Assembly (NCBI GenBank): GCA_964421015.1
Contig: CAYQUS010000006.1
Coordinates: 47,096-100,004, forward strand
Direction of reading: 5' to 3'
Length of the DNA stretch: 52,909 nucleotides
Source: an uncultured Planctomycetia bacterium
Lineage (GTDB): Bacteria; Omnitrophota; Gorgyraeia; Tantalellales; Tantalellaceae
Translations under genes and position numbers: made by a program
The notes under the pieces: model-generated
The model's database searches: none
What the model was told of the DNA's origin: nothing
The model's input: the letters and a program-made list of their open reading frames with translations, nothing else
Shown: positions 6,463 through 48,894 of the stretch, piece by piece
How the letters are laid out: every line of letters starts with the position of its first letter
Numbering within the stretch: position 1 is the stretch's first letter

Positions 6463-6646
6463 GAAGAGGGAAGTAGGAAGAGGTCAAGGTTAAGGTTGGT
6501 GTTATAGGTGCCTGGCACGATCTTGTGCCTGGCACCCCCTGCTGTTTTCTTCGAAAACACCCGCTGGGGGTCATGGACCACGATGGCATGGGCCATCGTG
6601 GAAGCGAGGGAGAGCACCGAGCGAAGATTTTCTCGCCGGGAAAATC
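6460..6646. repeat. Cluster of short palindromes and hairpins after proS
   Basis: GTGCCTGGCAC at 6508 and 6525; stems TGTTTTC/GAAAACA (6543-6559), CCACGATGGC/GCCATCGTGG (6578-6601) and GATTTTC/GAAAATC (6626-6646). Confidence 0.8.
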
Positions 6647-6735
6647 GAGCGCCCCTGGAGAGAATATCGGAAATATTTCGGCGTTACGGATTAAGGTTCA
6701 GGGCGAGTCTCAGTTTTTAAGAAAGGATTAGCGGG

Positions 6736-7455
6736 ATGTCTCAAGAATATACTCTCAAAATAATCAATATTATCACCCGGGTAACCGGGGTTAAAAGTTT
6801 CAGGCTCGAGAGGCCGGAAGGTTTTTCTTTTAAGCCGGGCCAGTGGATGTTTGTTCATCTTGATGTGAACGGAAAAGAAGAGAAAAAACCCCTTTCTTTC
6901 TCAAGTTCTCCCACTGAAACAGGGTACATTGAATTTACAAAACGTCTGACGGGAAGCGATTTTTCAAAGAAACTGGACTCTCTTAAGGAGGGAGACAGTA
7001 TAAAAATTAAAATGCCTTACGGTAATTTCACTTTTGAGGGAGAGCTTCCCAAAATAGCTCTTTTATCCGGTGGTATAGGCATAACTCCTTTTAGGAGTGT
7101 ATGTAAGAACGCGACCGATAAAAAGCTCGATACAGATATTATGCTTCTTTACAGTAACAGTGTCCCGGAGGGGATAATATTTAAAGACGAGTTTGATGAA
7201 ATGCTGACGCTTAATCCTAAACTTAAAGTGGTTCATACGATAACCTCACCGGACGCTCATAAGCTAGGGTGGAAGGGTTGTTCCGGAACCATAACCGGCG
7301 CAATGGTAAAGAAAGAGATACCCGATTACATGGAAAGAGTGTTTTTTCTGTGCGGTCCTCCCGGCATGGTAGAATGCCTTATCGAAATGCTCAAACTTGA
7401 GCTCAAAGTTCCAGATTCTAATATCCGCAAAGAGAACTTCATGGGATACGCCTGA
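6736..7455 (+). CDS. FAD/NAD(P)-binding oxidoreductase, ferredoxin reductase (FNR)-like family
   Basis: FKPGQW, PLSFSSSP, PYGNF, LLSGGIGITPF, FLCGPPGMV, ENF near the C-terminus. Confidence 0.9.
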   Translation: MSQEYTLKIINIITRVTGVKSFRLERPEGFSFKPGQWMFVHLDVNGKEEKKPLSFSSSPTETGYIEFTKRLTGSDFSKKLDSLKEGDSIKIKMPYGNFTFEGELPKIALLSGGIGITPFRSVCKNATDKKLDTDIMLLYSNSVPEGIIFKDEFDEMLTLNPKLKVVHTITSPDAHKLGWKGCSGTITGAMVKKEIPDYMERVFFLCGPPGMVECLIEMLKLELKVPDSNIRKENFMGYA

Positions 7456-7511
7456 GCTGTAGCCAATATTCAGCTTTAGATGTCCGTGGTGACACCTGAT
7501 CGCCATTGAGA

Positions 7512-7572
7512 AATGTATTCTGCGCTCTTCACAATTCGCCTGTCACTTCAGTACTTCAGGAGTAGATTCTTC
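7512..7572 (-). repeat. Dispersed ~60 nt repeat, inverted homolog of 3276-3336
   Basis: 48/61 identity by manual alignment. Confidence 0.7.
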
Positions 7573-7692
7573 AGGGGAGTGTCCTTATTTATATCCTTTT
7601 CAGGCGGCGAATTATTCCAGTGCTCGAATACACTTCTCAATGGTCTTCTGGCACTGATCCCTCATCTTTACTTCCCTAAACTCAACGGAAAC

Positions 7693-7937
7693 AGGTTAAT
7701 CCGCTCTCCGGGATGCTTCTGAGCCATTTTTAACGGAGAAAAAGTATGCCCGTTCCCTCTTTTCTCTGAAGTTCAAGGGAAAATTTTCAACTGTTTGAGC
7801 CGGAACAATAAACCACAAAACAAACCGGCGAGTTTTGAAAATTTAGGGCTGACTTTTTCGGACCCGTTACGTACTTATTACGAGGATAAGGGGCCGTTAA
7901 AACCGGCGAAGAAGCAGCCTGGAGAGCGGATTAACCT
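7693..7937. repeat. Structured non-coding element, copy 1 (core 7725-7902), enclosed by a 28 bp inverted repeat
   Basis: Core 7725-7865 aligns without gaps to 31945-32085 at 127/141 identity. Outer arms 7693-7720 and 7910-7937 are reverse-complementary at 26/28. Confidence 0.85.
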
Positions 7938-8152
7938 AATATTTCTAGCTTTTCAAAGGGTAACAATGAAGATTTGTTAAATATAAAAAAGTAAGCTTTC
8001 TAAACTGGTCTGCGGTAAAACCGTAACGTATACTCTATTTAACAGTTATTAAAATAAAACGTTTGTTATCTAGGCTTATTAGAGGGTAGCTTAGAAATTT
8101 TTTTGCCCGGTTACTTAATAGATTTTTAATTCATTTAAAACAGGGTGTAGAT

Positions 8153-11100
8153 GTGAAGATGCTGAGCACAAAAATAGCTGCTACGGATAAAGGGACCATA
8201 GGGAACAAAGCCAAAAGGCGTTTTAAGGCTTTGGTTAGCATGGTTACCGCCGTAGCTTTTCTTTCGAACACCCTAATGTACGATTCCGCTTTGGCCTCGC
8301 AAGTAAGCGCCCGGTATGCCCAGGATCATTCGGGGACGGGAGCCAAAAACGGATACGACGAGCTTGGGGCCGACAACTTTTCCATCCCGGATTTTCTAGG
8401 AGAAATAAAGTCCAGGCACGACTCGGCAGGATCAGGCACCATGGTCGTCCATATACAGGATGCGCACTGCAATTACGACTGTCAAAAGGCCATATCGGGA
8501 ATAATAAGCTACATACAGGAAAATTACGGAATAAACACAGTTAACCTTGAAGGTGGGGATGGCCTGTACGACCTTTCGGTCTTTACGGATATTCAGGACG
8601 CTCCGGTCCGTGAAAAGGTAGCCGACTATTTCGTGAACGAGGGGATACTGAGCGGCGCCGAATATTTTTCGGCGGTTTTCCCGGAAAAAACCGAACTTTG
8701 GGGCATAGAAGACCCGGGGCTTTACGCGGCTAACCGCGACGTTTACCGCAGTTCTCTTAAGAACATAGCCGCGGTAAATAGCGCTCTTTCAGTGATACAT
8801 ACTCAACTCAATGCGCTTAAAGACAGTACGTACAGCGACGATCTTAAGGATCTGGACAAAAAATACGGCGAGTACAAGTCGGGAGAGATGGATCTGAAAG
8901 ACTATCTTTCGTTCCTCTTTCTGAGAGGCGATGAGAGGGGTGTGGATAGGGGCGCTTACCCGAACATAAGTTCACTCTACGAAACAGCCGAGCAAGAGAA
9001 AAATATAGATTTCCGAGCCGCCAATTCCCAGAGGCACCTCCTTATTGACCGCATGGGGAGAAACCTTCCTCCTAAGATCGTGGGAGAATTAGGGGTAAAA
9101 ACTCTTAAGTTCCGTTCCGGCGAGATCTCTCAGACGGAATTTTACGAATTTCTCTCGAAAATGTCCCTAAGAGCAGGCATAAGCCTTTCAGAGTTCCCGG
9201 AACTTGAAAAGTATATAAAGTATGTTTCTCTTTATGACTCCATAGACAAGTCAGCGGTCATATCCGAGATGTCCTCTTTGGAGGAAGATCTTTGCCGCAG
9301 GTTTTCTTCCGGCGAAAAAGACAGGGAGCTCTGGGAGATATCACGGAACCTCACGTTCCTTGAGAACATGTTCGCCACGAGACTCACGCGCGAGGAATAT
9401 TCGCGGTATAAGTCCGGTCCTGAGGATTTTTCGGCGGCGAGGATAACAGCCTTCATAGAGAAAGAAAACCCTGCCGGAAAGCTTGAAATACGCCTTGCTT
9501 CGGCGGCGGCGGAAATCGACAGGCAAAAAGACGAGATCTCGGGTTTTTATGAATATTCCTTCAAAAGAGACGACGTATTCCTGGAAAAGATGAAATTTTC
9601 TTCCCGCGGGGAAGGCGGAAAAAGACGATACGCCATGCTTGTCACCGGCGGGTTCCATTCCGAGAACCTCGGTGAAATATTCCGGAAAAAGGGTTTTTCG
9701 TATGTCGCCGTAATGCCTAAGTTCCGCAATTGCGAAGGGTATGAAAGCCCCTATTACAGGCTTCTCGGGGGAGAGGAGAGCCCCGTGATAGCGGCCATTA
9801 AACAAAACGCTTCCGCGTCGGCATCGGCTCTTGCTCTTTACGGTTTTTTCTGCGCGACGTCAGGCGAGGTGAACGGTGACGCCGATGTGAACGCGGTGAA
9901 AACATGGGTCAAGCTTGTTACGGCTGTTTTCTCGCAAGATCTTTCAGACGGGCCTGTCGATGTGGACGGGGCATATAGAGTGAGCGAAGCGTCTTCCGAT
10001 GAAAGTGATGACGCTGCCGGTATAGTCCTTGATGTCGATGGCAGGAAGGTGATAGTTACTTACCTGTCTTCGGCGCAAGAGAGCGCCGCCGACGGACGTT
10101 TATCGAGAAGAAATTTCCTTAAGATGCTTGGGATAGGAGCGGCCACGGCCATAATTCCGGTTCGTTCAGAAGCCGAGGAAGAGCCCACAAGGGAAGAAAA
10201 GGAATCTCAAATAAGTGAATACCTCATGAGCGGATCGCTTGATGGAATAAAGATATCTGAACAGTACCTTTCTAAGGTCAAGGAGTTTATAAGTGACAGG
10301 GTTTTTTCAGATATCCCTACCATATACAGTGAAAGCCAACTTCCGCCCTGGTTCCTTTTCAGGCATTACTGCGCTCTTGAATTCGGGGAAACCGGTACTT
10401 CCGCGCCCGGGAAATCCGGACTGCATGTATCAAAAGCGAACGCGCACGGTCCTATACAGATGTGGACGGATCAGGCTGTCCAGCTTAATAAAAATCTGAC
10501 GACATGGAGAACCAGCAAGAGATCTAAAGATTCACCAAGGGACAGGGAAAAGCTGAAAGCTCTCGAAGAGTCATTCGCGAAATTCGGATTTAATATCGAT
10601 AAAGGAATAGAAGTAGCGAGGATAAAAAAAGACGCTAAGTACAGCGTTGCCATGGCCGTGGCCAACCTTAGGCTTATTTTTATGGACTGGGAGAGGTTTT
10701 TTGAGAAAGGCGCCGACCCGGTCGAGAGAAATGTCATGGAAAGACAGAAAAGGTTTTACACCCTTTCTCTGGTGGCGCTTCACAATTCGTCTCCTATAAC
10801 CGTCAAGCTGGCTATTCAGAACGGGGGGGAAGCTTGGGTAGAAAAATTAAGAGATGAGACCATAGGTCTTATGTGGCGGTTCTGCGTATTTTTAAAAGCG
10901 GTGAATACCGATCCCGACGTGGCGGCTCTTTTCGCCGAAATAGACCCCCAGATAAACATTCCCGAAGACGCTTTTCTCTCCGGGGAGGAAAGCCCGGTTC
11001 CTCTTATGGCTACGCGGGAGCTCGAGCCTGTAAACTTTGACGAGATAATGTCCAGGGTGGATGAAGCCGCTTACGCAAAGGAGAAACAATCCTCAAACAA

Positions 11101-14100
11101 AGTGAATGAACTGACAATGAAGTCTTTTGGGATATTCGATCTTGTGATTTACGCTCTGGCGGGAGCTGGAGCCGCTGTTATATCGCGTCGGATGTTGTTT
11201 CCTCTAAAAAACAATACCCACGCAACGAAAGAAAGGACAATGCAGGACAAAAGTATAGACATGGTGGCGAGGGTGTTCGCTGAATACGGTAAAGAAATTT
11301 CATATGAAGAAGCTAAATTTGTATGGCTTGCCATGCAGGAAGATCTGAGGATAGGCGGGATGGATGATTCTCCTCTTGCGGTTCAGAGGGGTCTTGTCAG
11401 GCTTATATCCGAGATGTCCCCCGACGGATTTCTAGATGCTTTCACGGAGGAGTATGGCACCCCTGAAAGCCCGGCGGAGAGGCTGCTTAACAGTCTGCGA
11501 AATATCTTTTCACCGGGGCGAGAAGGTTCCGACAGTGATGACGTGAACATAGCCGCTGGGGGTTCTATTAAAGTTACGCACACCGATGTTAATAAGTTTG
11601 TTGGTGACAATCTTCCCCGTGGGCTTTGGGGTGAAAGCCTTGAGGAAAGAGCCGAGAATCTCGATAACCTTGTAGAGGAAGGGACTGCCAAAGTACGCGT
11701 GACGGACGATGGCACGGAAGTGGTTTTAATTCCTATTAAAGGCCTTTTTAGGGCTTGCGGTCAGTTCGGGCATATAGGGCTTGGAAGAGCTTACGGAAGG
11801 CCTGTAGCATGGATAGACTCTGACTATATGGATAACGACATTGTTATCGGCCATGAGCTTTATGAGATAGACAGATGGGAACAGCACAGGAAGACTTTGG
11901 GGTATGACCCGGATATGATGAGAGGGTGGATAAGGGCGAATTTCGATCAAGCCCGTAAGCTTGCCGTAACGTGGCACAATGATAACAAATACAGCGTAGA
12001 GGATCTTTTCCTTGAGAATAAGACAGGGGTGCAGGTCGAAAGGCTTGACAGCATATTGACACGGATGAAGGTGTTTTATTCGGGAGAAAAGTTCAAAGAG
12101 TATATGAGGTCTCTTGCCGTAAAATACGCCGAGAACGGGCTTGAACTGGTTAATATAGACGGATTAGAAGGGGAACTTTTGAGCAGAATAGAGGAGATCA
12201 TTTCCGGTGTCGACTTAAAAGTATTGTCTGAAAGCCGTAGTCCCATCGGCATAAGGGGAAGCACAATAGAAGTGCTTTTAGCTTACGCTGAGTACATGAG
12301 CGACGAAGAACTGGCTATCGTGCTGGGGCACGAAGTGGGGCACGAGCTTGCCGACATTTTTCTTCCGGAACTTAGTCCTGACGCGAAATTTCTCCGTCAG
12401 GCGGCGGCTCTTCCCACGGATCTTGCGATCATAGGCGAAGACGGGGAATTCTTGTCGATTATCCACCAGGTGTACCGTCATGGAGGCAAGAAAAGAGAAT
12501 CGGCCGAAAATGAAATTCAGCAGCGCGAACTTTTCTCTGACGAAATAGGGATATTCCTGGCAGGGGCTATACTACCGGCGGAATTAAGAATAAGAGCCGG
12601 GGAAATAGCCGGGGATGTTCTTAATAAAACCTCCGAGTTCATCGACAATAATCTTAAAGACGACTCCGGAAGCGGATTTTTAAGCGTTCGAACGCATCCT
12701 TCGATAGAGGCCAGGGCGGCGAATCTTGGTTTTGGGCTAGGGATAAAAACTGCCGTCATGCTCACTGGGGTGGATCCGCTTAAAGAAGTAGCGGGGGAAG
12801 ATAAAGCAGATGAAATTTCGGGGTCGTATCCCTTAAGGGATCTTCTGTCCATTTTTGTGGAGACTTACGGCACAGATTTTGATCCCCAGGAGATAGATAG
12901 AGACGTAAACCTTGCCGCTGGGCCCGGAACAGGGGTTTCTCCGTTACGTAAAAAACCGCTTTTAGGTGTTATCCTGGATCATGTTAAGACTCTGGGGCAT
13001 AAACCGGGCGATGAAATAATAGTAGGGTTTACTTCTGATGGGATCCCCATAAAAGGCATTTTTAGAGGAATGGACGAGTACGGGGAGGAGATAATTTTCA
13101 GTCCCACCGGCTTTAATTTCGGAGCGATCCTCGGTAAAAACAAGGTTCTTTCCAGTGAAAGATATCTCCTATTTAACAGGTACGCTGAAAATGGATCTCT
13201 TATTATCGGCGGGAAAAAACACAGCCTTAGCGGTTTGGATTTTGGTCACGAAAAATTCCCGGAAATAGAAGGTATGTCTCTCAGGGAAGTTTTGAGGTAT
13301 ATGGCCATCGCGGAGGAGGGAGGTTGGTATGCCTGGGATTACCCTCTTGTTTCCGGCTATGATCTTGCGACAAAAAATGAGACCGAAGAAGATAAAAGAA
13401 GCCTTGCCGGAAGACCCAGGGGGGGGATGGCGTTCTATTCTCTGAAAGAAGGACGGCTGGTAACTTATATGTACACTTCTGTAGAGGTGCCTAACGGAAA
13501 GGGCGTTGAGTGGAGGATAGCGCGTATCGAGAGCGGGAAACCCCTGCCTCAGAACGAGACGGCCGCGCCTTCTTATCTGGTCAATGGGATAAGAGATGTC
13601 GAGGATATGGGGCAGGAGAATTTTGAGAACTTCTTTGATATGTATTGTCTTACCGATTCCTGGGACAGGAGCCTGATACGAGCCATGGCTGCGGTTTTAC
13701 GCGGCGAAAAAGACGCGGAGAAACTTAAAAACCTTTTGAGACCGTTCGACAAGTGGGGGGACGAAGTGAGGGTTAGCCCTGAAGACGTGAGAGCGTATAT
13801 GGAGGCCAGGGCGGAATATACCGCTTTAAGAGGGGATGATGATAAAAGAAGAACCGGGTTTTATAGCGCGAGGTCTTTTTTAATGGGGCTCTACGATGAA
13901 ACCGAAAAAAGCGAAAATTACTTCAGGTATTTCGGCGCGGTAAAAGATTCGGCGATGAACAAGCTCGCCTCTCTCGACGATGTTTTAAGAAGGTATTCAA
14001 GCGTAAGGTTCCCATCGGAGAAAGAGGTATCGCCTGAGGTTCAGAAAACAGCGGGAGAAGTGAAATCGGGAGACAGCATTTCATTCGGGTCGGAAACGTT

Positions 14101-17100
14101 TGTTCTGGAATTTAAAGGAGGCAAATATCTTATTGCCGGCAAGGTTTTAGAGGACGGAGGAACTTACAGTGTCGGTCGCGGCTCTGAAAATTACATACGC
14201 GTCCTGAACGGGTCGGTTTCGAGGGAGCATGCGGTTATAAAAGTATATGATGGCAAAGTTTTCATCGAAGACAAGTCTTCGATGAACGGGACATTTGTGA
14301 ACGGAAAGAAAATAGCTTCCCCCACGGAGTCTAAGCCCGGACAGCGGAAGGAGGCAGCATCTTCATCTAGAGTGTACGCCGTTTTTAATAACTGGCAGAA
14401 GGGTCTTGTAAATATCGCGGGAAGCATGGACGAAGTCAAAGCGCACAATTATGATGACACCTCCATGTTCCATATCGTTCCGGTGGATGTGCCGCAGGAT
14501 GTCTACGTTGGGGCGCATCAATCCAGTATTATTAGCGCAAGGGCCGCCGCTGATATTGATAACGTTAAACCCGGGAGCCGAGTTCTTGTAATAGGTACAG
14601 GTATGGGACTTGAAGCGTATATAGCCATGGGAAGAGGGGCGCATGTCGACGCTGTCGATATAAATCCGTCGGCCTTAAAGTCCACGGAAAACCTGTGCGG
14701 CAAACTGCCACCGGAAGGCAGGGGAAGCCTTAGGACATTCCTGTACGATGTTATGCCCGGCGGGATAAGGGAGAACGCGCTCGCTGACGAATATGACCTT
14801 ATAATCTTCAATATGCCCCATTACGCGGCGCCGACAAGCGGAGATGATAAGGAAATTACCGCTACCAGGGATCCCGGCGGCCAGCTTATAGGTCCGACAT
14901 CTGAAATCGTAAAAACGCGTCTTGCCTCGGGAGGAAGGGCTGTTCTTGTTAATACCGAAGGGGAAAATGTTCGCAAGACCCTTGAAAGCCAGATCGGTCT
15001 TACGGTTTTTCCGGACCCGATCTACGGGATGGATCCGTCAATGGCCTATGTTGTGGAGAATGGCAATAACGCCATACTTAACGATCTTATCGATCTCCTT
15101 GGGATAGATGTATCTCGGAATTTTGGCGTCAGGAAACAGCTTGTAGCGCTCGCCGAACTTATCAGGCGTAAACAGCTCGCCGCGGGCGGCGTGAGCGTCC
15201 CAGAAGTAACAGAAGGGGATTTGGCCGGAATAAATATCCCCGACATAATAGTCAAAGTAAACCGCTTGAACGGAAAGACTCTCGGCATGCTGGGTATGGG
15301 CGGTATGATGCCAGGCGCGGCAAAAGCCCAGTCGCTCATGGTGAACCTCTTGAGCGGACGAGCGCCTGTTACAAATATGTTTTTGAGGGCATGGGGGGTA
15401 GTATCAACGCCTTTCCATGAGTTCGCGCATTATCTGGCCGCGCTTATGTTCGGCGCCAATCCGAAACTTTCAGTAAGCGGACTCTTTACAGGCGAGATAA
15501 CGATAGACCGGGCGCCTCCTTCGAAGGCGGCGACATACCTCATCTATTCCGCTGGCCTTTTAGCTAACCTTGCCCTTGCCGGAGCTTCAGCTTATTACCT
15601 TTTAAATTACGGACAGACAGTTTCAGTTTTTGCTTGGGTTCTTCTCACGTGGGTCGCGGCTGCGAATGCCGCCTCGGCGATAATTGAGCTTGTTGGCGCC
15701 CCATTCGGCAAGGGAGACCTGGCGAAGGCTAGGGCCAGGAGAGTCGACGACAGTGAAGTTTTTAAGGGGGACGTTAAAGAGCTTGTTTTAGATACCCGGG
15801 TATTGGGACTGATTAAATTTATGAACGAGTCTTCCGGGTTTTTGAAGTTGGATCATCCCATCGTTTCGAAACTGCAGGAGTATGTTGACAGAATGACAGG
15901 GCAAGGGATGAGAGCGCCCCGGCTTCTAATAGCTATCGACGGAGAATCTCCCGATGCCTTCAGAGTGCCGGGGAATATAGTGATAAATCTCGCGCTTATA
16001 AGAGCCCTGGACACCTTAGGCGAAGTGGTTTCGGTAATAGCTCATGAACTGGGACATGAGGAGGCGCCCGAAAAGGTCTTTAATAACATAGGTTCAGGCA
16101 GGATGCATGAACTTTCGGCTGATCATGATGCAGTGGAAAAAGTGACGGCTATGGATTTCCCGTCAAATTCCATGGAGAATGCTCTTAGAAAAATAATAAA
16201 ACCGCGGTCTTTTCAGGACGCTGTCCATGGTTCTTTGTCCCACAGGATCGTACCGATACTTGCCGGTTGGGCGTTGAACGACCTCGAGGCGAGGTACGGG
16301 GCTCTTTCCCGCGATGAGCAGTCTATCCCGGATACATGGAAATTCGGTATACAGAAAAGTGTTTACGAGAAGCTTATTTACGGTAACCCTAACAGGGAAT
16401 TTTACAGAGCTCTCGAAGGGGCTTCCTTCGATCTTGTTAAAGACACATTGGAGAAGATCATGAAGGATTCTCCCTTGGGTGAATATTCAGATACGCCTAA
16501 GAGGGGGGAACACGTACTTTCAGAGAAGGTGCTGGCTATGCTGAACAGGATGAATGCGATCCTGGAGGATACAGCCATAAAGGAGGGCTTGGGCGACGAT
16601 GAGAGAAATGCCATTTTTCTCGGGGCTACAAAGGTCATGAATGAGCCGGTCTTCAGGCCTCCGTATTCTGATAAAGGAATAGCTTATTTTGAGGACAGCG
16701 CGAAATGGAAGTATACGTTGATAGCCAGGGGTGACCACAAAAAAGCCACAAAAAGCGAAAGAGCTATTACGGCTATCATGAGGTCACGAATAGAGCAGTA
16801 TTTAAAGACCCTGGATCCTCTCAATCTAAGGGGCGAAATAACAGCGAAGCATTTTGCGTCCCCGGTCTATTTTTCTCCGTCCGCTCATTCCATAGAATTA
16901 ATGATCCACGACAAAGAAATAGCCAAGAATATTTTTGGAGTAGGGTACATTTCGGAAGAGTCGCCGATTTTTATCTCGAACATGATTTCTTTCCTTGAAA
17001 AATTCAATGGTGAAATGTCGGGTTATGAAAGGCAGAGTATCGTGGGCGGGATTTTTATTCGCTTTATAGAGCTTTACTGGGAGCGCAAGGCCTGGACTTT

Positions 17101-20100
17101 TAGCAGAGATAATGTGCTGGAGCTTATTTCCCAGCTTAGAGAATCTTTTAAGCTGGTTGAAGGCAATAGCCTTTTTGGGAAATTTTACAGCGAGATATCT
17201 ACCGAAGGGTGGGACTACAACAGGTTCTTTAAGTATATTGCCCCTGAATCGGGAGTTGTAGGGAAAGAGGAGTATGAAAGGCTGTTGTTCGGCAGAAAGG
17301 ATGAAAATTACGAGAGGCTGATGGATTGTTTCCGAAACCGCGATGAAGACGCTTTTATGGAGGTGCTGCGCATCTCGGGGGTCTATAAAACCCTGAAATA
17401 TCTTTCTAAAGAAGATTATCCCGGGACAGCCGAGATTTTCGCCGCCGATGGAAATCTGCCGGCCTGGGTAGTTTCGGTCTTGGAAAAAAGATGGGAAGAT
17501 ATAGATGAGTACAGTTTTGGGGAAATTAAAGCGCTTTTAAGCTCATCGCACGTTCCAATGATAAACGATTTAGTTGAATTGTACAAGGCGGTGGAGCCGC
17601 CTATTGCCAAGATCATCTCGGCGAGCCAGATAATCGCGGGCTTGCCGGTGGATGACCATGTAGAAAATTACCTGAGTATGTCAAAAGAATTTCTGGATTC
17701 GGCCTCTGTTTCGGCGGCGATCAGCTCTATGAGCGTCGAAAATCAGGGGCTCCTCTTCGCGGGATTGGCAGCGATATTCCGCGGAAAGTTCGATTTTTTC
17801 TATGAACTTGAGGTGGAGAGGTACGGGGCTGTAGATGACTACCTGAAAATGCAAGCCTGGACCGACTATATAAAATTGACCCAGGAAAAACTTAAACTTG
17901 AACCCTCTCTGGAAGGCCTGGTAAACACTTACGATCTGTTTGTCAGGTTAACATACGCAAATTTTTACGGATATCACAGGTATGACGATATGCTTTATGC
18001 GGGATTAAGCGAATACAGCTCCGGGTGGATGTCCGAGATCAATCAGGTCTTTTATGAATCGCTTCTGAGACTTTCCGACGAAGCGTTGGATGTGACAAAA
18101 GACCAGGACCTGGCCGTTAAATATTACCTGGATATCATGGATAGATTTCCGGCTTCCGAGACAAAGAGGGGCATCCTTGATATTTTGGCGAGGCGCCTTG
18201 TCGACAAACTGGACGAAGCGCATCTTTCAATGTTTTTTGAAAGACTTTCCAGCAAAGGACACCTCAGTAAAAACGTGTACAGTTACTTTGTGTCAAAACG
18301 GATAAACACTTTTGAAGACAGCGAAAAGATGTCAAAATTCATAAGGGACCGTTATGCCAGGATGCTTTCGGGAGAAGATATTATCCCGGCTTTTATCGCC
18401 GGCATGGATACCGGGGGGGACCAGGCTCTATCCCCCGAAACAGCCAGTGATATTTTTTCAGCCGCCATGCTTTCGGGGAAAGATGAAAAAGTCCTATGGG
18501 AAGCCCTGGAGACACACTGGTATCAGATTTACGTGGGCGGAGCCAAAAGGCTGCTCTATTCCTTCGAGGTTAGAGACGGAAGGATAGAGGTGGTGGGTCT
18601 GGGAAGGGACAATTTTGTTCCACTGAAAACTTTCGTCGATAGTGTCCTTGATATGAGTGAAAACAGCAAGCTGGCATTAATGGAAAGACTTCTTGTTTCT
18701 CCCAACGGTCTTTTGCACCATGAATCCGGCAGGAAGCGTTTTGTAGAGCTCATTAGAGAGAATATTCCGGGGTCCGACAGCCTTTCAGCGATATTGAAGG
18801 AAGCGGTTGGTTCGGTCGTGGACAATGTGGACGCCGAGAGGGTATTTATGATGTTCCGTGATGTGATCAGGCCGTTTTTTCTCAGAAGACAGGAAGGGTT
18901 TACCGTGGAAGGAGAGTTTCTGAAAATGCTGGCACTCAGAAATATATCCAGAGTTGACGAGGATAACTATATTAATGAGGATAGCGTTACGCGCAATCTT
19001 AATGGGTTAAGTCCTGAAGTCTTCATGTCCCTGATCCGCGGAGATATCGAGAGAGCTCCCCTTGCCGCGCGGATAAACTATAGCAAGACCAGAAACGACT
19101 TTCTCTCAAGGTTTGGAGAAAAATTAGGTGTCGGATCTCTCCCCGAGAGCGAGGTTCCGCCTTCGGATGCGGGTGCTTTGGACATATTGATACTCGCCGC
19201 GGAAAGCCTTGGGCCTATGGGGGTGAGATCCCTGCAGGTCATGGGGCAGTATATGGATATACCGGCGGAATATGAAACCAGGTTCCGGGAGGTTTATGAC
19301 AGTAATGAAGGCATAGATAAGTTCATAGCGTTTGATATTCTTAAGAAATCGGCTGAGAGGGACCCGGGTGTTAAATATTTTCTCGAAAACGAGCTTGTAA
19401 GTATAGGCGATAAACTGGGAGGGGGCTCCATCATGACGGCGTTCCTTATCAAGGTCAAGGACCCAGCCACGGGAAAGATAAGGGACGAGGTACTCAAGGT
19501 GCGAGCGCCCAATGCGGAGGTAAGGGTAGACGATACTTATGAAAAACTTATACGAGTGGTAAGAGACATGAAGACCAGGGCGACCGCTTCTAAAAAAGCC
19601 AACTACGAGATAGCCGAGCGGCTCCTTTCAGATATCAGGGATTGGATCAGGGACGATATAAACGATGAAACGTTCCTTGAGCTTGACCAGAAGTACGCTG
19701 AATTCCACAAGAATTACAGGGACAGCAGGGGTACCAGGGTAAGGATACCGGGAGCCTTTTCTCCAAACAATAGGGATGTCAAGAGGGAAGAGCTGGTTAG
19801 GGGAGAGACCCTGAACAGTCTTCTTCGCGAAGGGAGAGGTGAAATTTTAAAACCGGCCGTGCAGGCTGTGGTTGAGGATTTTGCCCGCACCCTGGTAAAT
19901 CCTGTTTTTAACGATTCCGACGGCGAAGAGGTATTTCTTCTCCATTCGGATATCCATTTTGGTAATGCCATGGTGGAACAAAAAGACCCCGCGTCTACCG
20001 AAGATCTTACAGTAGCCCTTATAGATCGTAATCTGTACCTCAGGCTTACGCGAAAAGAAGTTGATTTTATGCGCTCCTTACTGCTGGCGGAAAATACGTC

Positions 20101-23100
20101 TGACATTGCGCATTTATCGAATGTGATAAAGTACTTTGCCGGTGACCTGAGCGGTGCCCGCCAGCTGGCTATTACGGCTTCCATCGCGAGAAAGATCAAA
20201 ATGGGAGGTGTTAAAAGCGGTATAGGGGCCCTGGCAATTATCCTTAAGGAGTTTGAGTTTAACTCCATTCACGTGCCGATAAGGATGCGGATACTCTTCA
20301 AGAACCTTTCGGCCATAGAAACGATGTTGAGAACGGTGGATGGAGGGGAGTTCAGGGATTATCTAAAGACGGTTATTGATCTAGAGCGAGAAGTTTCCGC
20401 GGAAAAGGAGACAGCGTCAAAAAGTTTTCATATGAGCGATGAAGCGCTTGCCGCTTTCAGAATTGAGATGCTTGAGCGGATCAAGGCAGGTAACAAGATG
20501 ACCATAGATGACGCGATAGGATATTTGGAAAGTGAAAAGGTTCCTGACTATTCTCCAATAATGATAGCTCTTGGAAACGCCAAAACCAAAGACCTCACAC
20601 GCGAAGATGATATAAACAGTCTTATGGAGGGTTTGAGTGAGGAAGAAGAGGTAGCATTAGCTATTCTTATCCAGCCCCGTCAGGGCGGGGGTGAGACCGG
20701 AGACACCGGCATCGTCGGAGAGATGCAGGAGGCGTCGCCTGTGCCCGAGGATGTTCATGTCGAAAAAGAAATCGAGGCTATGTCATCTGAAGCCGCACGT
20801 GAAAACAACGCCTATAATTACACGGTCTGTCTTGAACTGATAGCCGGGGATTACCATGCGAACATACCACTCACAGCTATCAATACGAATTTGGATGGCT
20901 CTGTAAGGGATGCCGAACTGTCAACAAAAACGCTAGTTGGCGTTCTAAACATACAAGATGACCGTTCCAAATACCTCTCCCTCCAGGAGATCACAAGAGC
21001 ATGTCCATTGTTAAGAGATACCTCCCAAGCAGGTAATGTATTAACCGAAGCACTAAGCATCGCCCGGAACATACAAGACGACTACTATAAATCACTCTCT
21101 CTCCAGGAGATCGCAAAGGCATATGTTTTGTTAAAAGACTATTCCCGGGCAGGTGAGATATTGCCCGAAGCGCTGAGTGTCGCCCTGAATATACTGAGTG
21201 ATCGTTCCAGATCCGTCTCTTTGCGGGAGATTGCAAGGGTATATATGACGATAGGCGTAGATGCCGGCCGTTTATCTGTGCTCCGGGGCCAATTTGAGAA
21301 CGTAAGGCGATTGGCGGAAGAGACATTCATGGATCCCAATATCGCGGGTCAAATCATAGCGACCCTGTTTAAAGAAAAAATATCTCCCGCTTCGATAAAT
21401 AACGAGAGCGACATAGTGGATCTCTTCTGGAAGATAAACGATCCGGCGGAGAAGAAGATCTTTTTAGAAAAGGTCATACAGCCCGCCTTTTTTAAAAATA
21501 GGTCGCTTTTTACGCAAGATGTGCTCGAAAAACTGCAAACGCTCTATCTCCGGGATGTCCCCGGGACGAAGCACATTCTCTTCTGGGCGAACATGAAAAG
21601 AGACGCGCCTTCTTTGTACCTTGATGAGGTTTTTAGCTTACATGGCTCCGTAGAAAGTATTCTTAAGAAAGGAAAGAAACGGGTATTGGTGGGCCATAAC
21701 GTGTATGACGGCCAGGGGGATGAGCTTATAATAAACGCCCCGCTTATCCAGGCGTTATTAGACTATAACCCTGAACTCGAAGTGACTATCATTACCCTTC
21801 GTCCATATCTTTACAGCCATCCCAGAATACATGTTCACGATATCGGGAAGGAAGATGTCGTTACGGATAGATTCTTTGATATGGTTGCGGATAGGCCCTT
21901 TGATATGGTTATTGAAGAATTCGATAGCTTGCCCGGATCCATAAAAACCGGCGCTTCGTTATTCCTTGACATAGAAATAGGTTCCATGTGGGGGTATAGG
22001 CCGCATCATGTTGAAAGAGGCGTCCAGAAGTATCATGTTGAGATAGAAGCTCAGAAGTATGTTATACAGATCGATGCCGATAACGTATATACCCCGGGGA
22101 TGGAGCTTATGGCCGAATTCGGACTTACTTTCAGGGCGGGTATTGAAAAAACGCAGAGTGGATGCATCTTCACATCTACTCCATATCAGATAGCCGAAGA
22201 TTATTGGGAAAACAAAGTATTACCCGCCGCCAAAGGCGCGAAAGAGATAGTTGTATTCAACGGTTTTGGGGGCATGCTTGAAGAGAAAGGATTCGCCCGC
22301 ACGTCTGAAGGCAGGGAGCAATTCCGAGAGGCGCTTACAGCCCTTATAGGTAGCGGGCGCTTTGTTGTTATTTTGCCAAACGATCAGGACTGGGGAACAG
22401 TCGAGGTGGCAAACACAATGATAAATTCGCTTTCTCCTGAGGCAAAGAAGTTCTGCATGATAGCCCCATCCCCTATCGAGGATCCTCTATTGCACAAATA
22501 CCTTGTCTCAAAGGCGGATCGGGTAGTGACAGTTGAAGGAGGCCTGATGCATCTCGCTTATAACATGGGCAAACCCTATGTTGTTCTTTTTGCGCAAGAC
22601 CCCGATACCATTAGAAGATGGGCTCCGGTGAGCGCGTCAAATGAGCAGAAGGCATATGTTTCCAACCTTTCCCCTGCAGCGATCATTGATAGTTATTTAA
22701 AGAACGTACCGCACCTTGCTCCAGCCATCGGGACGGCCGAACCCGAGACCGGCATCGTCGTCGCGATGAGCGGGGAGAAGGTGCCTGTGGTGGCGGAAGA
22801 AGCCCCCGAAGAGCGCGAGGCGCGCGAATTTATAGAAGCTAATGCTGACTTTGCCGCGGCGATAGCGCCGTATCGGTATCTTACAGACCGTTACGGTTAT
22901 CGCCCGTGGAAGGAACTGTACGACGCTGCCGGCCCCATTAAGTACGGCCATTTCGTTCAGGTTATCCCGGAACTTGCAAAGATCTTTACCAAAGAAAAGC
23001 TTATAGAATACTGGCCCGATATTGTCGAGATCGGTAAGACTGCTAGTTTCAATGTTCCATTACTTTTTTCTTCCATCCTGCCGGGACTAAAAAGTGCCTT

Positions 23101-26100
23101 CGGCACCGAATACTTGTCGGATATTCTCCGGTTGGGTAAAGAAGGTGGAAGTAACGGCTATCATGTTTTGGATGCTATCCTGAAACTCGAAGAAATTATT
23201 ACAACTAGAGATGAACTGAATAAGGTCGGAAGTGACCTCCTCGAACTCAGCAAGACGTCCGGAAAGAAAGGATGGCATCTTTTGGGTACGGGTATTTCGG
23301 CGGTCACAAAAACCTTCGCCGTCAAAGAGCTTAAAAACCGTTGGCCTGATCTCGTCAATATGGGTAAAGCGGCCGGAGTTGATGCAGGAAATCTTTTTGA
23401 ATACGGTATTCCGATGGTTGCGAAGGTTTTCACCGCAAAAGAGATGGATAGGGGTTGGCATTACCTTTCTAAGATAGCTATCGACGCCGGTCCGGCATCA
23501 TTATATCTTTTCGCGAAAGTGGTGCCGGCGCTCAGGGAATATCTTGTGGCCAAATGGGAGGATGAGGGATCGTTCGAAATGCCGCTACATGAGGTCGCAG
23601 CTGTTTTGTACGCGGAGGAAAAAGGACAAGACTTCGAGTTTGAGTTAAGTGCCAGGTCTGATGAAGAAAGTCTTGCCCGGATCGCGAGTCTGGCCTTGAA
23701 GTTTCTGGACGATAAAAAAGATCTCCACCTCCGGTATCTTGTCTATACCGGGAAATATGATGAAGTGAAAAAGTTGTTTGACGCTGGAGAATCTTCTCCA
23801 TCGGAGATCGCGGACATGGCTCTGGCAGTGAGGCAGGCCGATATAGCATCATATGCTACGGAGCTTGCTTTTTCAGGGAAGGACAGAGTCAAAACGGACA
23901 ATTACGGCAATATGATGCCGCTTCCTTACCTGGTACCGTTGAGTGACAGGATCGAAGTGCGGGCTGTTAGAAAAGAGGAGCTTATAAATGACCTTTCCAG
24001 CTTCGGGGTAAAAAAACCTTCAGAGGCGCTTGATGAAGCTTTAGCGAGGGGAGGTATGACAGTAAAGAACACCGCTGATGGTGATGTCATAGTCCCGGTT
24101 GTGCTCGATACCGTGTTGAGCGGTTACCGAGGGAGCCGCTCAGTTGATCATGTCAAGTCCACTTATCTTACATATGCTATCACTACCGTACTTTTTAAAT
24201 ACGCTAAGGATGGAGGTGCGCAGGCGAGTAGTGGCGAAAAAGGGGAAAGAGCCTCCGGGTTTACCGCCGTGCATGAGTTCGACGTCAATTTAATGAATCT
24301 TGCGGGGATGACCGAACGTTCGACAGATGACTATGTAGCGCGTGCTTTTTACTACGGTGAAGGTATGAGTCTGCCCGAATACGCCAGAAAAAGGAATATG
24401 GAAAACTATCCATTTACGCCCAGAGAGCAACTAGCCGAGCTTATGCGTTACCAGCGGAACGAACGCCGGGCAAAGCAGAACATCCGGCAGATATTCGAGT
24501 GGCTGTCGTCAGGCAGTCTAAGCGATGTCGAGGTCGCCTCCGCAATAGACGCCATGAGGAGAGAGCTCGCCGTGCTGGACCCGTGGTCCGGGACTTGCGG
24601 TCTGAATGAGGATTATTTCGACGCGGTGTACGGTTATCTTGACGGCAGATTCTTCGAAGATCTAACAACCGAATATAAGCCCGGCTCGGACAACAAGGTT
24701 ATTATCAACGGCCGGCTTAAAGATGCGATGTCGCGGCATAAGGTCCTGGTGACTCGGGCTGTCGGAGAGGCTCCGGAAGTGCGGTCCGATCATCCCTGGC
24801 TTGCTACAGGAATAACCCTGATCGACTATCTTGAAAACGAGGAGGTTATCCTTAAGGGAACGCCGAGTTACGCCGATCTTCGCACCATGAGAACGCCGGC
24901 GGATCTCGCGCCTGCCCCTGCGACCGGGGCGGCTGATCCGGAGACCCACGTCATCGGCGCGATGGACGAGGAGGAACCCGAGCCAGCTGCGCTCGCGGAA
25001 AAGAGCGGCAGTCATATGCCGGCTGGAACGGATAAGCTTTGGGTAGACGGTAGATTAAACAGCAGCGGCATTTTGCTTATGCACGCGTTAAACCATTTCC
25101 CTGAAGACGGGAGGCTTTATCCGAACAGTTATTTCGGGGACGAGCCCGTATTGATGAGAAATCCCCGCAACATCGTGGAGTTCTCATTCAATAATATCAT
25201 TCATTATTGGATGGAAGCCACATACATTGTCATCATACCGATGACTGCGATGCTGGATAGGCAATGGGTAAATATCTGGTATACAGCCACGTCTCATATG
25301 GGTCCGGTCTCTCTCCCTAAGGGTACGACAATAATGGTTCGAAGAGGCCGGGAGATATCAGAACAACAGATAGAGGCGTTAAAGGCAAAAGGTATAAGTA
25401 TTGTTTATTTCGATGAGAAAGGCTGGGCAGATTATGAAGCGGTCAATGTCGTTAAAGGCATGGGTTATGAACCTGTGACTATCTTTGGCGGTCCGTTTGG
25501 AGGGACAGATACAAGTTGGAAAAGTGAAAAGACGGATATGGATTACGGGAGCAAAGAAAACATGCCGCAGCTTAAGCAAGCCATAGGCCAACTGGCCGAA
25601 GAATTACATATTGCTTCAGCCGAGCCTACTTCCGAATATGACATAGGATACCTAACGATCTCTATGGAACTTCTGCATTCCGCATTTTTCGGAGGGGATC
25701 CGAACAGGCCTTCTGTCGATTGGGATGAATTCAACAGTTGTCACGAACGGGTTTTGAGAGACGGGAGATTTTCAGGGACCGAAGCTTGGACCAGGTTTAT
25801 GATGTTTGTTAAATTCTACAGGGACATATATCGTATTTACACTCTTGGGAACATGAAGTACCAGCACGCGTTGTTTTGGGTAAACCCAGATTATATAGAA
25901 TTTGCCATAGAAAATGACCCTGAGGAAGTTGAAGAGGCGTTGGTCTTGAGGGGCAGGATGCTGCAGGAATTCAATAAACTTTTTGATATCAATATCAGCG
26001 AAAGCGATCTTGCTTCAGAGGAAGATTTCAAGAAAGTTGCTGCTTTGGCGGCAGAAAAACGTTCTCAAGACGAAGCCGGCCTTCTTGCTTCCGCACCCAC

Positions 26101-29100
26101 CGCGAGCGGTGATCGAGTTGAAACTGCGGCCGCTGCTGACGGAGCGACCGATATCATCGGTGCGATGCTCGGGGATGCTGAACCCTCCGCACTGCCGGAT
26201 ACATACAGCTATTTCGCGAACGATCCTATAGGTAAAGATATTCCGAGAGAAGTAATTGAAGCCGGTATTACTGCGACAGGGAGAGGCGGTCTTTCATTCG
26301 GGTTTGCTAATTCCTCGGGCGAGATCCAGCTAAAGGCGCTCTCTAACAGTTTTAAGGAGCTTATTGCCCGGAAGAGATCTACCGGGGAGAGAACTCTAGT
26401 TATCCGCCAAATCGGACCGGGAGACGGCAGCGAAGCGGTTTCTATCTTGAGACGGCTTGACGATCTAATAGGATATGACCCGCAAGGAAAATGGGAGGTC
26501 ATAATAGATGTGGTTGATAATAACGAAAGTATTTTAGCGGAAGCCGAAGAGACCCTGGGAGCGGAGATGGCAGGGTTTGAGAATATAACGTGTAATGTCA
26601 GATATTCAAAAGCGGATGTTTTTGACGCGGCCGGTTTAAATGCGCTTAGAACAACCGGAGCGGCAGGCAGTACTGATTATATTATTTTCAGGAACGTGCT
26701 GAATATCAAACAGCATATCGACAGGGGGGATTTTGAATTAAAAGACATGGCGGCCTCGTTCATAGCTCTGCGGAATCTTATAGAGAACTTTGCCGGCGAG
26801 GATACAAAGCTTGTAATGGAGCCTTATCCGATACAGCCGCAGGACGGGCTTTTGGCCAACGGTATTTTGGATGCGGGCGATATAAAGAGTTTTCAAGAGG
26901 ACAACGGGTTCAGTAATTTTCTCAACTTGTTCGGAGCATCGGATATGATGCATATCGGCATATCAACGGCGTCGCCGGCAGAAGAGTTCCCGGCTGAGAT
27001 AAAGAACGAAGCGAAAAATATCCTGGAGGCAAGGATAGAAGCGTTAAAGGCCGATCCGGCACAGATATCAATGCTTATGGAAAATATCAGGGCGGCTTCC
27101 GTTCGGGGAAGAATGGATTTTGGAACGATCGCCGATATGGTAAAAGATTTTTATTTGATAACTTCCAGGGTGCCGCTCCCTGAAATTGAAGGCGGCAGGG
27201 AACCGGGCATACTTGAGTATGAGAGCGCCGGAGGTACTGTAAGATTTTTTGACGTCAATATCGGGACGATGGAGCCTGATGGCAAGGTTCTTTTGGCGCC
27301 AGAACTGTCTTCCGGTGATATCGGAATGGTTGTAAGGAATTCTGAAGATTATTTCAGGAACAATAAAGGACGTATAGCCGATATGGCCGCTGCCCGTTCT
27401 CTTGAAGCGGCGCGTAGTTTTATGTCGTTAGGGGAAGACAGAGAAGAGGAGAGAAAGAGCGCTCTTGAGGGCATGTGGAGGGATATCGTCGAGGAATCAA
27501 ACAGCTCCGACGAAATATGGTGTTTGGGCGCGGTATCCAGATTGAGCGCGTTACTGGCCATACACAAATATCTCGAGAGTGAAATGGGAGTCATCTTGCC
27601 GAGTTATTACAGATTTGTCACCGATACCGGTTCTTTTGAGGGTCAGGTAAAAGATAAAGGCCAAAGTTCTCCGATAGGGATTCTGGGGGAAAAGGTCGGG
27701 TTTGCCGTCGGGGTCTCAAAAGGCGATATTGAGAACATGCTGAAGAGCGGGACATTGGCCCATCCCGAGACGGGCGATTTAATAGAGCTTACAGAACGCG
27801 ATAAAGACAGGCTCAGCCGGCTTATTTCCGGTGCGGAGAAAGATGTATATGTTATTTCTTACGCTGATCTTTCCAGGGAAAAGTTAGAGGATATGCTTCC
27901 TAACCTTGGGAAATATATAGTCTCTTCCTTTGAGCCTCGCGCTGCGGAGATAGCTGAGGAGGTAATACAAGAGGATCCGGCCGACCGGACGGATGGCGAA
28001 GGCATGAGCCGCAGGGGTTTTCTAAAAGGAGTGGGGGCGATAGCTCTTACCGCGGCTATGGACACGGCGGCCTTGGACGTTGAAAGTTTCCTGGCCGAGG
28101 CTACCCCCGAAGAATTGGCGGAAAAATTGTTGACCCGGGATAATATCGACGAAACAAGCTTTGAAAAGATGACGAACGAATATGAGTATCTGACCCAGGC
28201 TTTCAGTAATACGAATTTCAGGGAATTTTCCAGGCACAAACCATCTGAAAAAGAGATAAGTTTTCTTGCCGGGTTAATAAGACACTGCCAGAAAGTGGAT
28301 ACTGAGAAACTAAACAAGCTGCTCGGGGCCGTTGAGAATGTGATTATCATAGAGAACGGTCCTCATGACGGAGGGGCGGGTTTTGGTGTGTTTTCCAATA
28401 ACAGCGTTGTGCTTGAATTTGACAGCGATCTGCCCACACTGAGCGAGGTGAGTACGCCGATATACGCGGGCCTTTTAATACATGAGGCGGCGCATGTGGA
28501 AGGGGCAAGAAAGGAAGTGCCTATAGAAGGCATATTGTCAGAAATATATGCCCGGCTCGAAGTTCTTGATTGGAAAGGTGTAGGCGCTAATTCCCAGTCC
28601 TGGATAGACGAAGAGCAGTATATGGTAGACATGATCACTTTGGGTATAGAGAAAGTTAAGGCGGAAAAGTCTATTGCCGGCACAAAGGTAACGCGGCACG
28701 ATATGGAAAAATCTGAAGCCGGCAAGGTATGGGACTACTACTGGGCTAATGGCGTTACAAGAATGGAAGCGGTCAGATTTATGGGCGCCGCGCGAGGTCT
28801 TTTGATGATGGAGGGCTACGCCGATTCCGAGGTAAAGTATATTTCCGGCACTGACAAACTTCGCCCTGACACGAAAGAGAGGGAAAAGGGACAGCCGGTG
28901 AAGGGGTATTGGATAGCATTTGATCTGGGAGGCGGGAAAACAGCTGAAATATTCTCAGGTGTAGATGAGAAAGGCGTTCTGTACGTCTTTTATGAAGGCG
29001 AGTGGACAAAGCTTTCGTTTAAACTTGAAGAGGCCAAGGCGAAGATGGGCCGGGGATTTGACGGCATAGGGGAATTGACCGTAGCCGCGTCGGCAAAATG

Positions 29101-48830: not shown

Positions 48831-48875
48831 TTGACAAAAACTTCAAAAAGTGATACTATCACGATAAGTGATACG
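48831..48875 (+). promoter_or_regulatory. Sigma70 promoter with an overlapping palindrome
   Basis: TTGACA (48831-36), 17 nt spacer, TACTAT (48854-59) with extended TG. Palindrome GTGATA-C-TATCAC at 48850-62; AAGTGATAC is repeated at 48848 and 48867. Confidence 0.7.
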
Positions 48876-48879
48876 AATC

Positions 48880-48894
48880 GGGGGGGGGGGGGGG
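48880..48894 (+). repeat. G15 homopolymer in the 5' UTR
   Basis: 15 consecutive G between the promoter and the RBS GAGGAGG (48904-10). Confidence 0.9.

Follow-up and report, generated by a model that had tools for sequence, protein, structure and literature searches.

Internal twin-arginine-like signal motifs in a 7,833-residue modular protein of an Omnitrophota bacterium

The stretch of DNA analysed here (52,909 nucleotides (nt) of contig CAYQUS010000006.1, referred to as the window) derives from an Omnitrophota bacterium and carries a giant gene with one uninterrupted open reading frame (ORF). Two motifs resembling the signals of the Tat (twin-arginine translocation) route, LSRRNFLKMLGIGAATAIIP at amino acid (aa) 650 (motif 1) and MSRRGFLKGVGAIALTAAM at aa 6618 (motif 2), are found within this ORF rather than at its N-terminus. 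The observation is well grounded computationally as a sequence feature. We consider it about an even chance (probability about 0.5) that both motifs are true signal peptides of the Tat type and that each heads a modular export cassette joined, in frame, to the rest of a giant protein that is secreted or sits in the membrane. The internal signals are probably built in and would serve to place parts of one giant protein outside the membrane.

Both motifs, SRRNFLK and SRRGFLK, are exact matches to the seven-residue S-R-R-x-F-L-K consensus, as had been noticed in the original prediction, which was made from the letters of the window and placed the motifs, each with a hydrophobic stretch, at about residues 650 and 6620. 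Motif 1 is translated in the context ADGRLSRRNFLKMLGIGAATAIIPVRSEAEEE / AADGRLSRRNFLKMLGIGAATAIIPVRSEAEEEP, with L650 at nt 10100, and motif 2 in the context DGEGMSRRGFLKGVGAIALTAAMDTAALDVE / RTDGEGMSRRGFLKGVGAIALTAAMDTAALDVES, with M6618 at nt 28004. Going by the composition of the protein, one would expect 0.0018 full-consensus matches per protein, and the Poisson probability of two or more occurrences is 1.6e-6. The relaxed pattern [ST]RRxF[LIVM] is found in the giant at motif 1 and motif 2 and nowhere else, and a hydrophobic run follows three of the 20 twin-arginine (RR) dipeptides, i.e., those of the two motifs and of the N-terminal signal. The NCBIfam profile TIGR01409 (TAT_signal_seq) scores motif 1 at 22.2 bits and motif 2 at 18.5 bits, both above the cutoff of 16.7, and gives no match to the N-terminal signal of the giant itself.

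The segments that follow the arginines have the build of Tat signals. In motif 1 a hydrophobic region (h-region) of 13 aa is followed by P-V-R-S-E-A, with a basic 'Sec-avoidance' residue and S-E-A as a small-x-small site, and in motif 2 an h-region of 11 aa is followed by D-T-A-A, with T-A-A as the small-x-small site and no basic residue in the C-terminal part of the signal (c-region). By direct reading the h-regions are rich in Gly, Ala, and Thr, a helix-breaking G or P is present near the h-region end, and a basic c-region residue occurs in four of the six independent Tat-like instances that are now available (see below). An N-terminal region with RR, a weakly hydrophobic h-region and a polar c-region are the features listed for Tat signals (PMC7317946). 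The h-regions of the Tat-like instances are 11-17 residues long. Sums on a biological hydrophobicity scale, on which a higher value means a less hydrophobic segment, were 9.1 (motif 1), 6.4 (motif 2), 5.5, 4.4, 3.1, and 2.8 for the six Tat-like segments and -2.3 to 3.6 for segments of the transmembrane (TM) type in the same proteins; these sums are crude.

Judged from alignments with related proteins, both motifs head modules and lie within about 13 residues of module junctions, and close strains differ by whole modules. The full-length homolog P0008 (2,577 aa) aligns to residues 25-639, 1116-1597, 2057-2376, and 7350-7832 of the giant, and residues 640-1115, which are absent from P0008, comprise motif 1 (650-673), an orphan domain of about 317 aa, the TM helix H3 (aa 992-1011) and a short tail. 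In P0001, encoded on a fragment from a close strain (L002), a methyltransferase-like module (76% identical to giant 6012-6294) is joined directly to a block of 93% identity, which starts at giant aa 6605, 13 aa before motif 2; giant 6295-6604 is missing, so that a different module is present upstream of the junction before motif 2. L006, a contig of 12.3 kb that comes from the sample that also gave P0001, matches giant 1-2376 at 93% identity, and its copy of motif 1 is identical except for L650F. This contig also holds an extra cassette of about 470 aa between giant aa 2376 and 2391. The extra cassette starts EKITRRGFLGKIVVAAAVLNAAASGKAAAEE and consists of a Tat-like signal (TRRGFLGK...), about 350 aa, and then a TM helix with RLRGAGFKK, i.e., the same layout of Tat-like signal, domain, and TM helix with basic tail that is seen in aa 650-1011 of the giant.

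Motif 1 (in L006) and motif 2 (in L002) are thus present in frame on two independent metagenome contigs of the strain of about 93% identity, and this agreement rules out an artefact of assembly or reading frame. Strains at this level of identity were seen to differ by in-frame modules at three sites (15281-15325, aa 2376/2391; 24908-26185, aa 5586-6011; 27035-27964, aa 6295-6604). Two modules are missing from P0001/L002, and the blocks that it shares with the giant have identities of 69%, 76%, and 93%, i.e., the gene is a mosaic.

Four more internal Tat-like signals were found in related giant genes. One is the signal of the extra L006 cassette. In P0005 (L003, Candidatus Tantalella remota) a strong TM helix and a loop of 10 residues precede PSRRGFLTSAAAVTAGAGLVFAGR (PSRRGFLT...). 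In L010, a complete protein of 3,560 aa, RMISRRGFIKAIAGGVAVVATGPVIFKIYKALK (ISRRGFIK...) is located at residue 2601, before the same HExxH module that follows motif 2 in the giant, and in L023 QRRQFIKSAAIAIGSVIAGGTIAYITGRKTQKK (QRRQFIK...) is located at residue 1749, before another HExxH module. TIGR01409 gave 24.1 bits for L010, and the further scores outside the giant were 15.5 (motif 2 of P0001), 14.3, 13.8, and 12.9 bits. The comparison with L010 is informative as SRRGF[LI]K has been kept at the same place though the module is only 33% identical and the sequence of the h-region has diverged. A retained SRRGF[LI]K before a diverged h-region is the pattern that would be expected of selection on a signal and not of the decay of a relic. 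A strict-motif scan of all stop-to-stop ORFs of at least 80 aa in 1.22 Mb of Omnitrophota loci returned matches that sit in genes of this family with one exception, a minus-strand ORF of 170 aa that is non-coding in appearance. Self-BLAST of the giant did not find internal repeats and motifs 1 and 2 are therefore not copies of one duplicated segment.

An observation on the ORF of L023 (JAQUSB010000007.1) concerns a 23-residue direct repeat, at aa ~1725-1748 and ~2083-2105, of a Pro/Ala-rich linker, AAKPEQ[SP]STPAAGVAPQGPSPII, which flanks a cassette made of the Tat-like signal and a HEWTH module. The repeat hints at a route of cassette insertion or duplication.

The domains that follow the two motifs differ in how far they can be classified. 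The SLT-like label that the original prediction gave to the domain after motif 1 was not supported. Residues 676-990 have no Pfam match and no PDB sequence match at E <= 5 (the latter is also true of the region after motif 2), and a small SLT profile made from four E. coli enzymes (Slt, MltC, MltD, and EmtA) gave 0.2 bits, no better than shuffled sequences, and aligned only VSKANAHGPIQMW, a 13-residue resemblance to vSxxxAxGlMQ. The AlphaFold2 (AF2) model of this orphan domain from its single sequence had a mean confidence (pLDDT) of 36 and was unusable. The domain was seen only in the giant and in L006. Stand-alone homologs of the cassette domains with an N-terminal Tat signal were not found in searches with aa 560-1060 and with the L006 cassette plus the P0005 region, which are uninformative since their word pre-filter missed even P0005 in the second.

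The 'HEAAH zincin' proposed to follow motif 2 fared better, at the level of motifs. Alignment of seven homologous modules (alignment A3) has H138, E139, H142, S157, E158, and Y160 as invariants, and HExxH together with SExY makes a gluzincin-like pattern at that level. The module belongs to no Pfam family. AF2 modelled it with confidence (pLDDT 76.5), and Foldseek of the model against the PDB returned nothing at E <= 0.001, the best hit being the HExxH domain of 8s5f (E = 0.22, TM-score 0.32). The module may represent an uncharacterised family of metallopeptidases. Homologs are present in P0001 (93% identity), L010 (33%), P0002 (33%), and P0003, a stand-alone protein of 320 aa. The module is also found, often in tandem, in P0004, P0006, P0007, and P0010, which have an N-terminal signal-like hydrophobic leader and a repeat-rich look, and in P0002 it comes after a multi-TM region and a lipobox-like leader, LLITLPAFTAC. 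Because the leaders of L010 and P0002 also precede the module, a leader of the in-to-out type would appear to stand directly before it throughout the gene family, and by its sequence context the module downstream of motif 2 would be extracytoplasmic in nature.

The following topology may be proposed. The Sec signal would export the N-domain, and H3, the strongest TM helix of the protein, with its positive charges inside, would act as stop-transfer. Residues 1012-6617 (about 5,600 aa) would then stay in the cytoplasm with the FHA domain and the borderline methyltransferase-like and glycosyltransferase-9 (GT9) matches, interrupted by a two-helix hairpin at aa 2459-2511. Motif 2 would restart export, so that 1,200 aa, comprising the HExxH module and the C-domain, end up outside, by way of Tat or of a Sec-to-Tat hand-over, and the C-domain would thus lie on the same side as the N-domain, as is required in family members without TM helices. 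For the C-terminal 1,200 aa, motif 2 probably functions as the in-to-out signal. Four crossings (the Sec signal, H3, and the two helices at 2459-2511) precede motif 2 by crude hydropathy, and because this number is even its RR is predicted to be on the cytoplasmic side. Motif 2 is the last hydrophobic segment and is followed by the HExxH module, which presumably binds metal, while motif 1 has a TM helix after it.

The position of motif 1 is different. With no TM helix between it and the Sec signal, it would lie in a part that has already been exported. For this reason it is probably a leftover, without effect on the topology, of a captured cassette built as 'Tat signal, domain, C-tail anchor', and the anchor of this cassette is now probably used as stop-transfer. 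Only the Sec signal crosses the membrane before motif 1, which puts its RR on a side inconsistent with the rule for dual Sec-Tat proteins. A hidden conserved TM helix in the N-domain that would put the RR of motif 1 in the cytoplasm was ruled out, as the hydropathy profile of the family displays the N-terminal segment only. Among the relatives, L006 gains two crossings with its extra cassette and the parity is unchanged, the arrangement of P0005 (TM helix, RR loop, Tat-like helix) is self-consistent in parity, and L010 and L023 fit only if one weak helix is counted in each. In L010 a GHKL ATPase is located between the weak TM helix (aa 991) and the Tat-like motif. Positive charges after the Tat-like helix consist of a single R in motif 1 and of K/R clusters in L010 and L023.

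A number of points weigh against the proposal that the motifs are working Tat-type signals at the head of export cassettes. The Pfam profile PF10518 gives 18.0 and 16.6 bits for motifs 1 and 2, both below its cutoff of 22.7. Motif 2 has neither a basic residue in its c-region nor positive charges downstream but is followed by D and an acidic stretch, and it could equally be an internal signal of the Sec type; a passenger of 1,200 aa is also very large for Tat. Deep conservation was not seen for motif 1, which is shared only with the 93%-identical strain. Identity of aa 676-990 as an SLT or family 1 lytic transglycosylase is unsupported beyond VSKANAHGPIQMW, and the HExxH module has no structural relative, which leaves the status of the downstream domains as hydrolases putative. 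An ordinary N-terminal Tat signal did not appear in the strict-motif scan, which covered about 1.2 Mb of Omnitrophota DNA, and phmmer, run with the E. coli proteins TatA and TatC on every ORF of the window and of 85 loci (1.27 Mb), gave no match, in a sample that is too small to decide the matter. The topology was derived from crude hydrophobicity scales; the TM helix at aa 991 that it needs in L010 is weak, and in the TM-free P0008 the modules that it places in the cytoplasm would be exported.

It is possible, if somewhat unlikely, that the motifs are pure relics, i.e., decaying leftovers of captured genes that have no role in targeting, and that the Sec signal or strong TM helices set the topology. 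Capture itself, one of the explanations offered in the original prediction, is well borne out by the junction positions, the C-tail-anchor layout and the extra cassette in L006. Many family members of 1,700-2,900 aa have an N-terminal signal only and are apparently exported whole, motif 1 follows a domain already exported by the Sec signal with no TM helix in between, motif 2 of P0001 has changed K to E and G to R (15.5 bits), and of the seven instances scored with TIGR01409 four do not reach the cutoff. On the other hand at least five independent internal instances keep RR-x-F-[LI] and an h-region, and at 33% module identity SRRGF[LI]K is still found, with a hydrophobic stretch of diverged sequence, in front of the same module. 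The C-domain would moreover be trapped on the side opposite to that in the core family if the helix at 992-1011 were not followed by an in-to-out signal. Decay without function suits motif 1, but motif 2 is too deeply conserved for this reading, and its description as a mere relic is doubtful. That the segments are ordinary Sec-inserted TM helices, which carry RR by chance as a positive-inside flank and are unrelated to Tat, is decidedly improbable. Arg-rich cytoplasmic flanks are common and the downstream flank of motif 2 is acidic and Sec-friendly, but the full S-R-R-x-F-[LI]-K recurs in independent instances, the TIGR01409 profile is passed three times, and the h-regions are, in addition to being short, far less hydrophobic than the true TM helices of the same proteins.

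Two further explanations let the motifs act at a free N-terminus. In a polyprotein route, likewise raised in the original prediction, the HExxH proteases of the protein itself would cut in the cytoplasm just upstream of the motifs and the fragments would be exported via Tat one by one. The giant has five HExxH motifs versus 0.16 expected, the chain ahead of the motifs is a flexible linker that is acidic or rich in Pro/Ser, all three versions of motif 2 have a Met 1-2 residues before SRR, and processing has been proposed for giant proteins of Omnitrophota (10.1101/2023.11.21.568195). D-V-N-[IL]-A-A-G, present in exactly two copies in the giant (aa 1130-1136 and 1584-1590; 11540-11560 and 12902-12922), brackets an HExxH module (aa ~1137-1583) as self-processing sites would, and the counterpart in P0008 is likewise bracketed, by D-I-N-L-A-A-G; going by their placement these motifs may be candidate self-processing sites or recombination joints. 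They are, however, located at aa 1130 and 1584 and not at 650 and 6618, no candidate cleavage motif is shared upstream of the Tat-like signals, and loop insertion of an internal Tat signal, as in dual Sec-Tat proteins, needs no free N-terminus. This route seems quite unlikely. Internal translation starts, also suggested in the original prediction, would give shorter proteins in which the motifs are ordinary N-terminal signals, and are very improbable indeed. It was correctly noted that motif 2 begins with Met and that GGCGAAGGC precedes its ATG, and P0001 likewise has a Met there, as does L010 two residues further upstream. But Leu650 of motif 1 is encoded by TTA and there is no start codon before its RR, the L006 cassette, P0005, and L023 are without Met next to RR, the purine run before Met6618 ends 1 nt from the ATG and so is not a Shine-Dalgarno (SD)-like sequence at proper spacing, and the Met of L010 has no SD-like sequence, whereas several real genes of the window have GGAG or GAGG at normal spacing.

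The closest known system is that of the dual Sec-Tat membrane proteins, in which internal Tat motifs are present on the last helix, as in the actinobacterial Rieske protein Sco2149/QcrA, Sco3746, polyferredoxins, and YkuE-like proteins (PMC3471235; PMC5449189). The premise of the original prediction that Tat signals normally work only at the N-terminus was in this respect too strong. Low hydrophobicity lets the Tat-dependent helix of these proteins escape Sec, and positive charges C-terminal to it release dual-targeted helices from Sec (PMC5449189). The giant resembles them in having an internal RR before a weakly hydrophobic helix, an upstream part that would be handled by Sec and a downstream globular, probably metal-binding domain that would be outside, and in that the helix of motif 2 is the last hydrophobic segment. 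It differs in its size (7,833 aa), in that motif 2 is preceded by about 5,600 aa of cytoplasm-type modules and followed by a passenger of 1,200 aa, in the lack of release charges at motif 2, in a passenger with HExxH and not a redox cofactor, in that it is known from sequence alone, and in that several signals per gene lineage are gained and lost with cassettes. For C-tail-anchored Tat substrates, which have a single C-terminal anchor in the 2003 work as cited in PMC5449189, the likeness is to aa 650-1011 and the L006 cassette, both of which have a domain of about 320-350 aa between a Tat signal and a single TM helix that basic residues follow. The cassettes differ in being embedded in frame in a giant protein, where such substrates have genes of their own, and in having orphan domains without recognisable cofactor sites.

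Giant proteins have been described in Omnitrophota before. The 'Archaeovorins' exceed 30 kaa (thousand amino acids) and have numerous TM helices and a divergent SecA_DEAD domain (10.1101/2023.11.21.568195), and for these and Dockerin-type giants proteolytic processing and attack on cell walls have been proposed (10.1101/2023.11.21.568195; 10.64898/2026.06.07.730766). The present protein shares with them the phylum, a long multi-domain secreted or membrane build and protease-like domains, but it is 7.8 kaa versus 30-147 kaa, has few TM helices and no SecA_DEAD, and belongs to another family (HIQDAH...GGFH). Twin-arginine signals are unmentioned in both reports, the second of which suppressed internal signal-peptide calls as chunking artefacts (10.64898/2026.06.07.730766), and our literature search found no paper that ties giant proteins of Omnitrophota to twin-arginine signals. 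Export of wall hydrolases by Tat is in itself ordinary, as the cell-wall amidases AmiA and AmiC are exported through Tat (PMC7317946). What is new here is the modular setting of several thousand residues, the presence of multiple signals and the mobility of cassettes between close strains.

For the insertion and export of proteins of many thousand residues, the internal signals provide landmarks, both for the segments that may lie outside and for the places at which the chain may be cut. Gain and loss of cassettes from strain to strain suggests a rule by which a pair of crossings is added without disturbing the remaining topology. Tat is so far known to act internally in small redox proteins, on their last helix, and the question is raised whether it can also deal with cassettes in a giant protein. 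In viral polyproteins of the flavivirus type, internal signal sequences are inserted co-translationally at Sec61 of the eukaryotic endoplasmic reticulum and cut by host signal peptidase. The giant is similar in that one long chain has internal signals with small-x-small sites at the head of modules that would be extracytoplasmic; here the motif is twin-arginine and cleavage would be no more than predicted from these sites. One may go further and propose a modular 'export cassette' grammar, in which complete Tat-type signals, each with a TM anchor or the C-terminus as its partner, are exchanged in frame from strain to strain and one polypeptide is woven through the membrane or is cut at the signals, by signal peptidase or by its own proteases, and exported piecewise. 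This we regard as rather improbable; if true, it would give bacteria an equivalent of viral polyprotein topogenesis that runs through Tat. The features of the giant protein on which the above is based are collected in Table 1.

Table 1. Features of the giant gene and its product, with nucleotide positions in the window.
Feature	Residues (aa)	Window (nt)	Strand	Remarks
Giant ORF	7,833 aa	8153..31654	+	Single stop-free frame, GTG start
N-terminal Sec-type signal, KRRFKALVSMVTAVAFLSNTLMYDSALA/SQ	20-47	8210..8293	+	Sole hydrophobic segment conserved family-wide
Conserved N-domain	~48-640	8294..10072	+	Invariant HIQDAH...GGFH; P0008 homology stops at aa 639
Tat-like signal 1, LSRRNFLK, h-region MLGIGAATAIIPV, c-region RSEA	650-673	10100..10171	+	
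All-helical orphan domain	~317 aa	10172..11122	+	"SLT-like" in the original prediction
Strong TM helix H3, FGIFDLVIYALAGAGAAVIS, then RRMLFPLK	992-1011	11126..11185	+	Closes cassette 1
HExxH module between two D-V-N-[IL]-A-A-G motifs	motifs at 1130, 1584	11540..12922	+	
FHA domain	2005-2063	14165..14341	+	Cytoplasm-type, between H3 and motif 2; Pfam E = 4.5e-14
HEFAH, then two hydrophobic helices	~2410-2515	15380..15697	+	Segments aa 2459-2477, 2493-2511
Tat-like signal 2, MSRRGFLK, h-region GVGAIALTAAM, then DTAA	6618-6640	28004..28072	+	
HEAAH module (HExxH + SExY)	6640-6975	28070..29077	+	
Conserved family C-domain	7350-7833	30200..31651	+	52.6% identity to P0008 C-terminus

Few modules of the giant could be recognised, i.e., the FHA domain, which is the securely identified one, two M48-like HExxH stretches, borderline matches to glycosyltransferase-9 and to a methyltransferase, and a sub-threshold M50B-like region. 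The latter, at aa ~2410-2515, matches Peptidase_M50B with E = 3.8e-4 and 20.7 bits, under the cutoff of 26; it may be a built-in intramembrane protease of the M50B/S2P type, which could act on weakly hydrophobic, signal-like helices. By hydropathy the protein has about 4-6 hydrophobic segments, and Pfam finds no SecA domain in it. The N-domain matches no Pfam family. Its invariants in alignment A1 are H100, Q102, D103, A104, H105, G499, G500, F501, and H502.

The family to which the giant belongs is found throughout Omnitrophota and has a common scaffold of Sec signal, conserved N-domain, variable modules, and conserved C-domain, to which the giant adds about 6,700 aa of further modules. In the protein collection 59 homologs of the N-domain (first ~640 aa) were found, of which most that carry a source name are from Omnitrophota, and GTDB genomes hold at least 528 relatives of the N-domain, several per genome. 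An AWA-like cleavage motif closes the Sec-type signal in most members, many of which are 900-2,900 aa long and have no TM helix beyond the N-terminal signal. The C-domain is conserved at the end of most of the longer members, and it forms the C-terminus in most of about 20 further family ORFs that have it. A contig search of GTDB representatives with giant aa 1417-6416 did not find a close relative. Several metagenome-assembled genomes titled 'uncultured Planctomycetia' (L022, L024, L030, L032, and others) hold a family of the Omnitrophota type, and their labels may be wrong.

Upstream of the giant gene are the housekeeping genes cdsA, dxr, rseP, ispG, and proS, and downstream are rimP, nusA, infB, a gene for a class-I Trp/Tyr tRNA synthetase and scpAB, together with aromatic amino-acid genes, cmk, and rpsA. 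The base composition of the giant ORF is that of these neighbours, which rules out a recent horizontal acquisition, and because of its housekeeping flanks and matching composition the giant gene is a resident chromosomal gene. About 700 nt at the 5' side of the giant gene (7456-8152) are without genes and become richer in AT toward the start; Rfam and tRNA scans of the window, including this stretch, gave no match. A second large ORF (48868-52908, plus strand) leaves the window at its end, encodes at least 1,347 aa and has an N-terminal signal-like segment, MISAVVAGIFLFQEIVWAGD.

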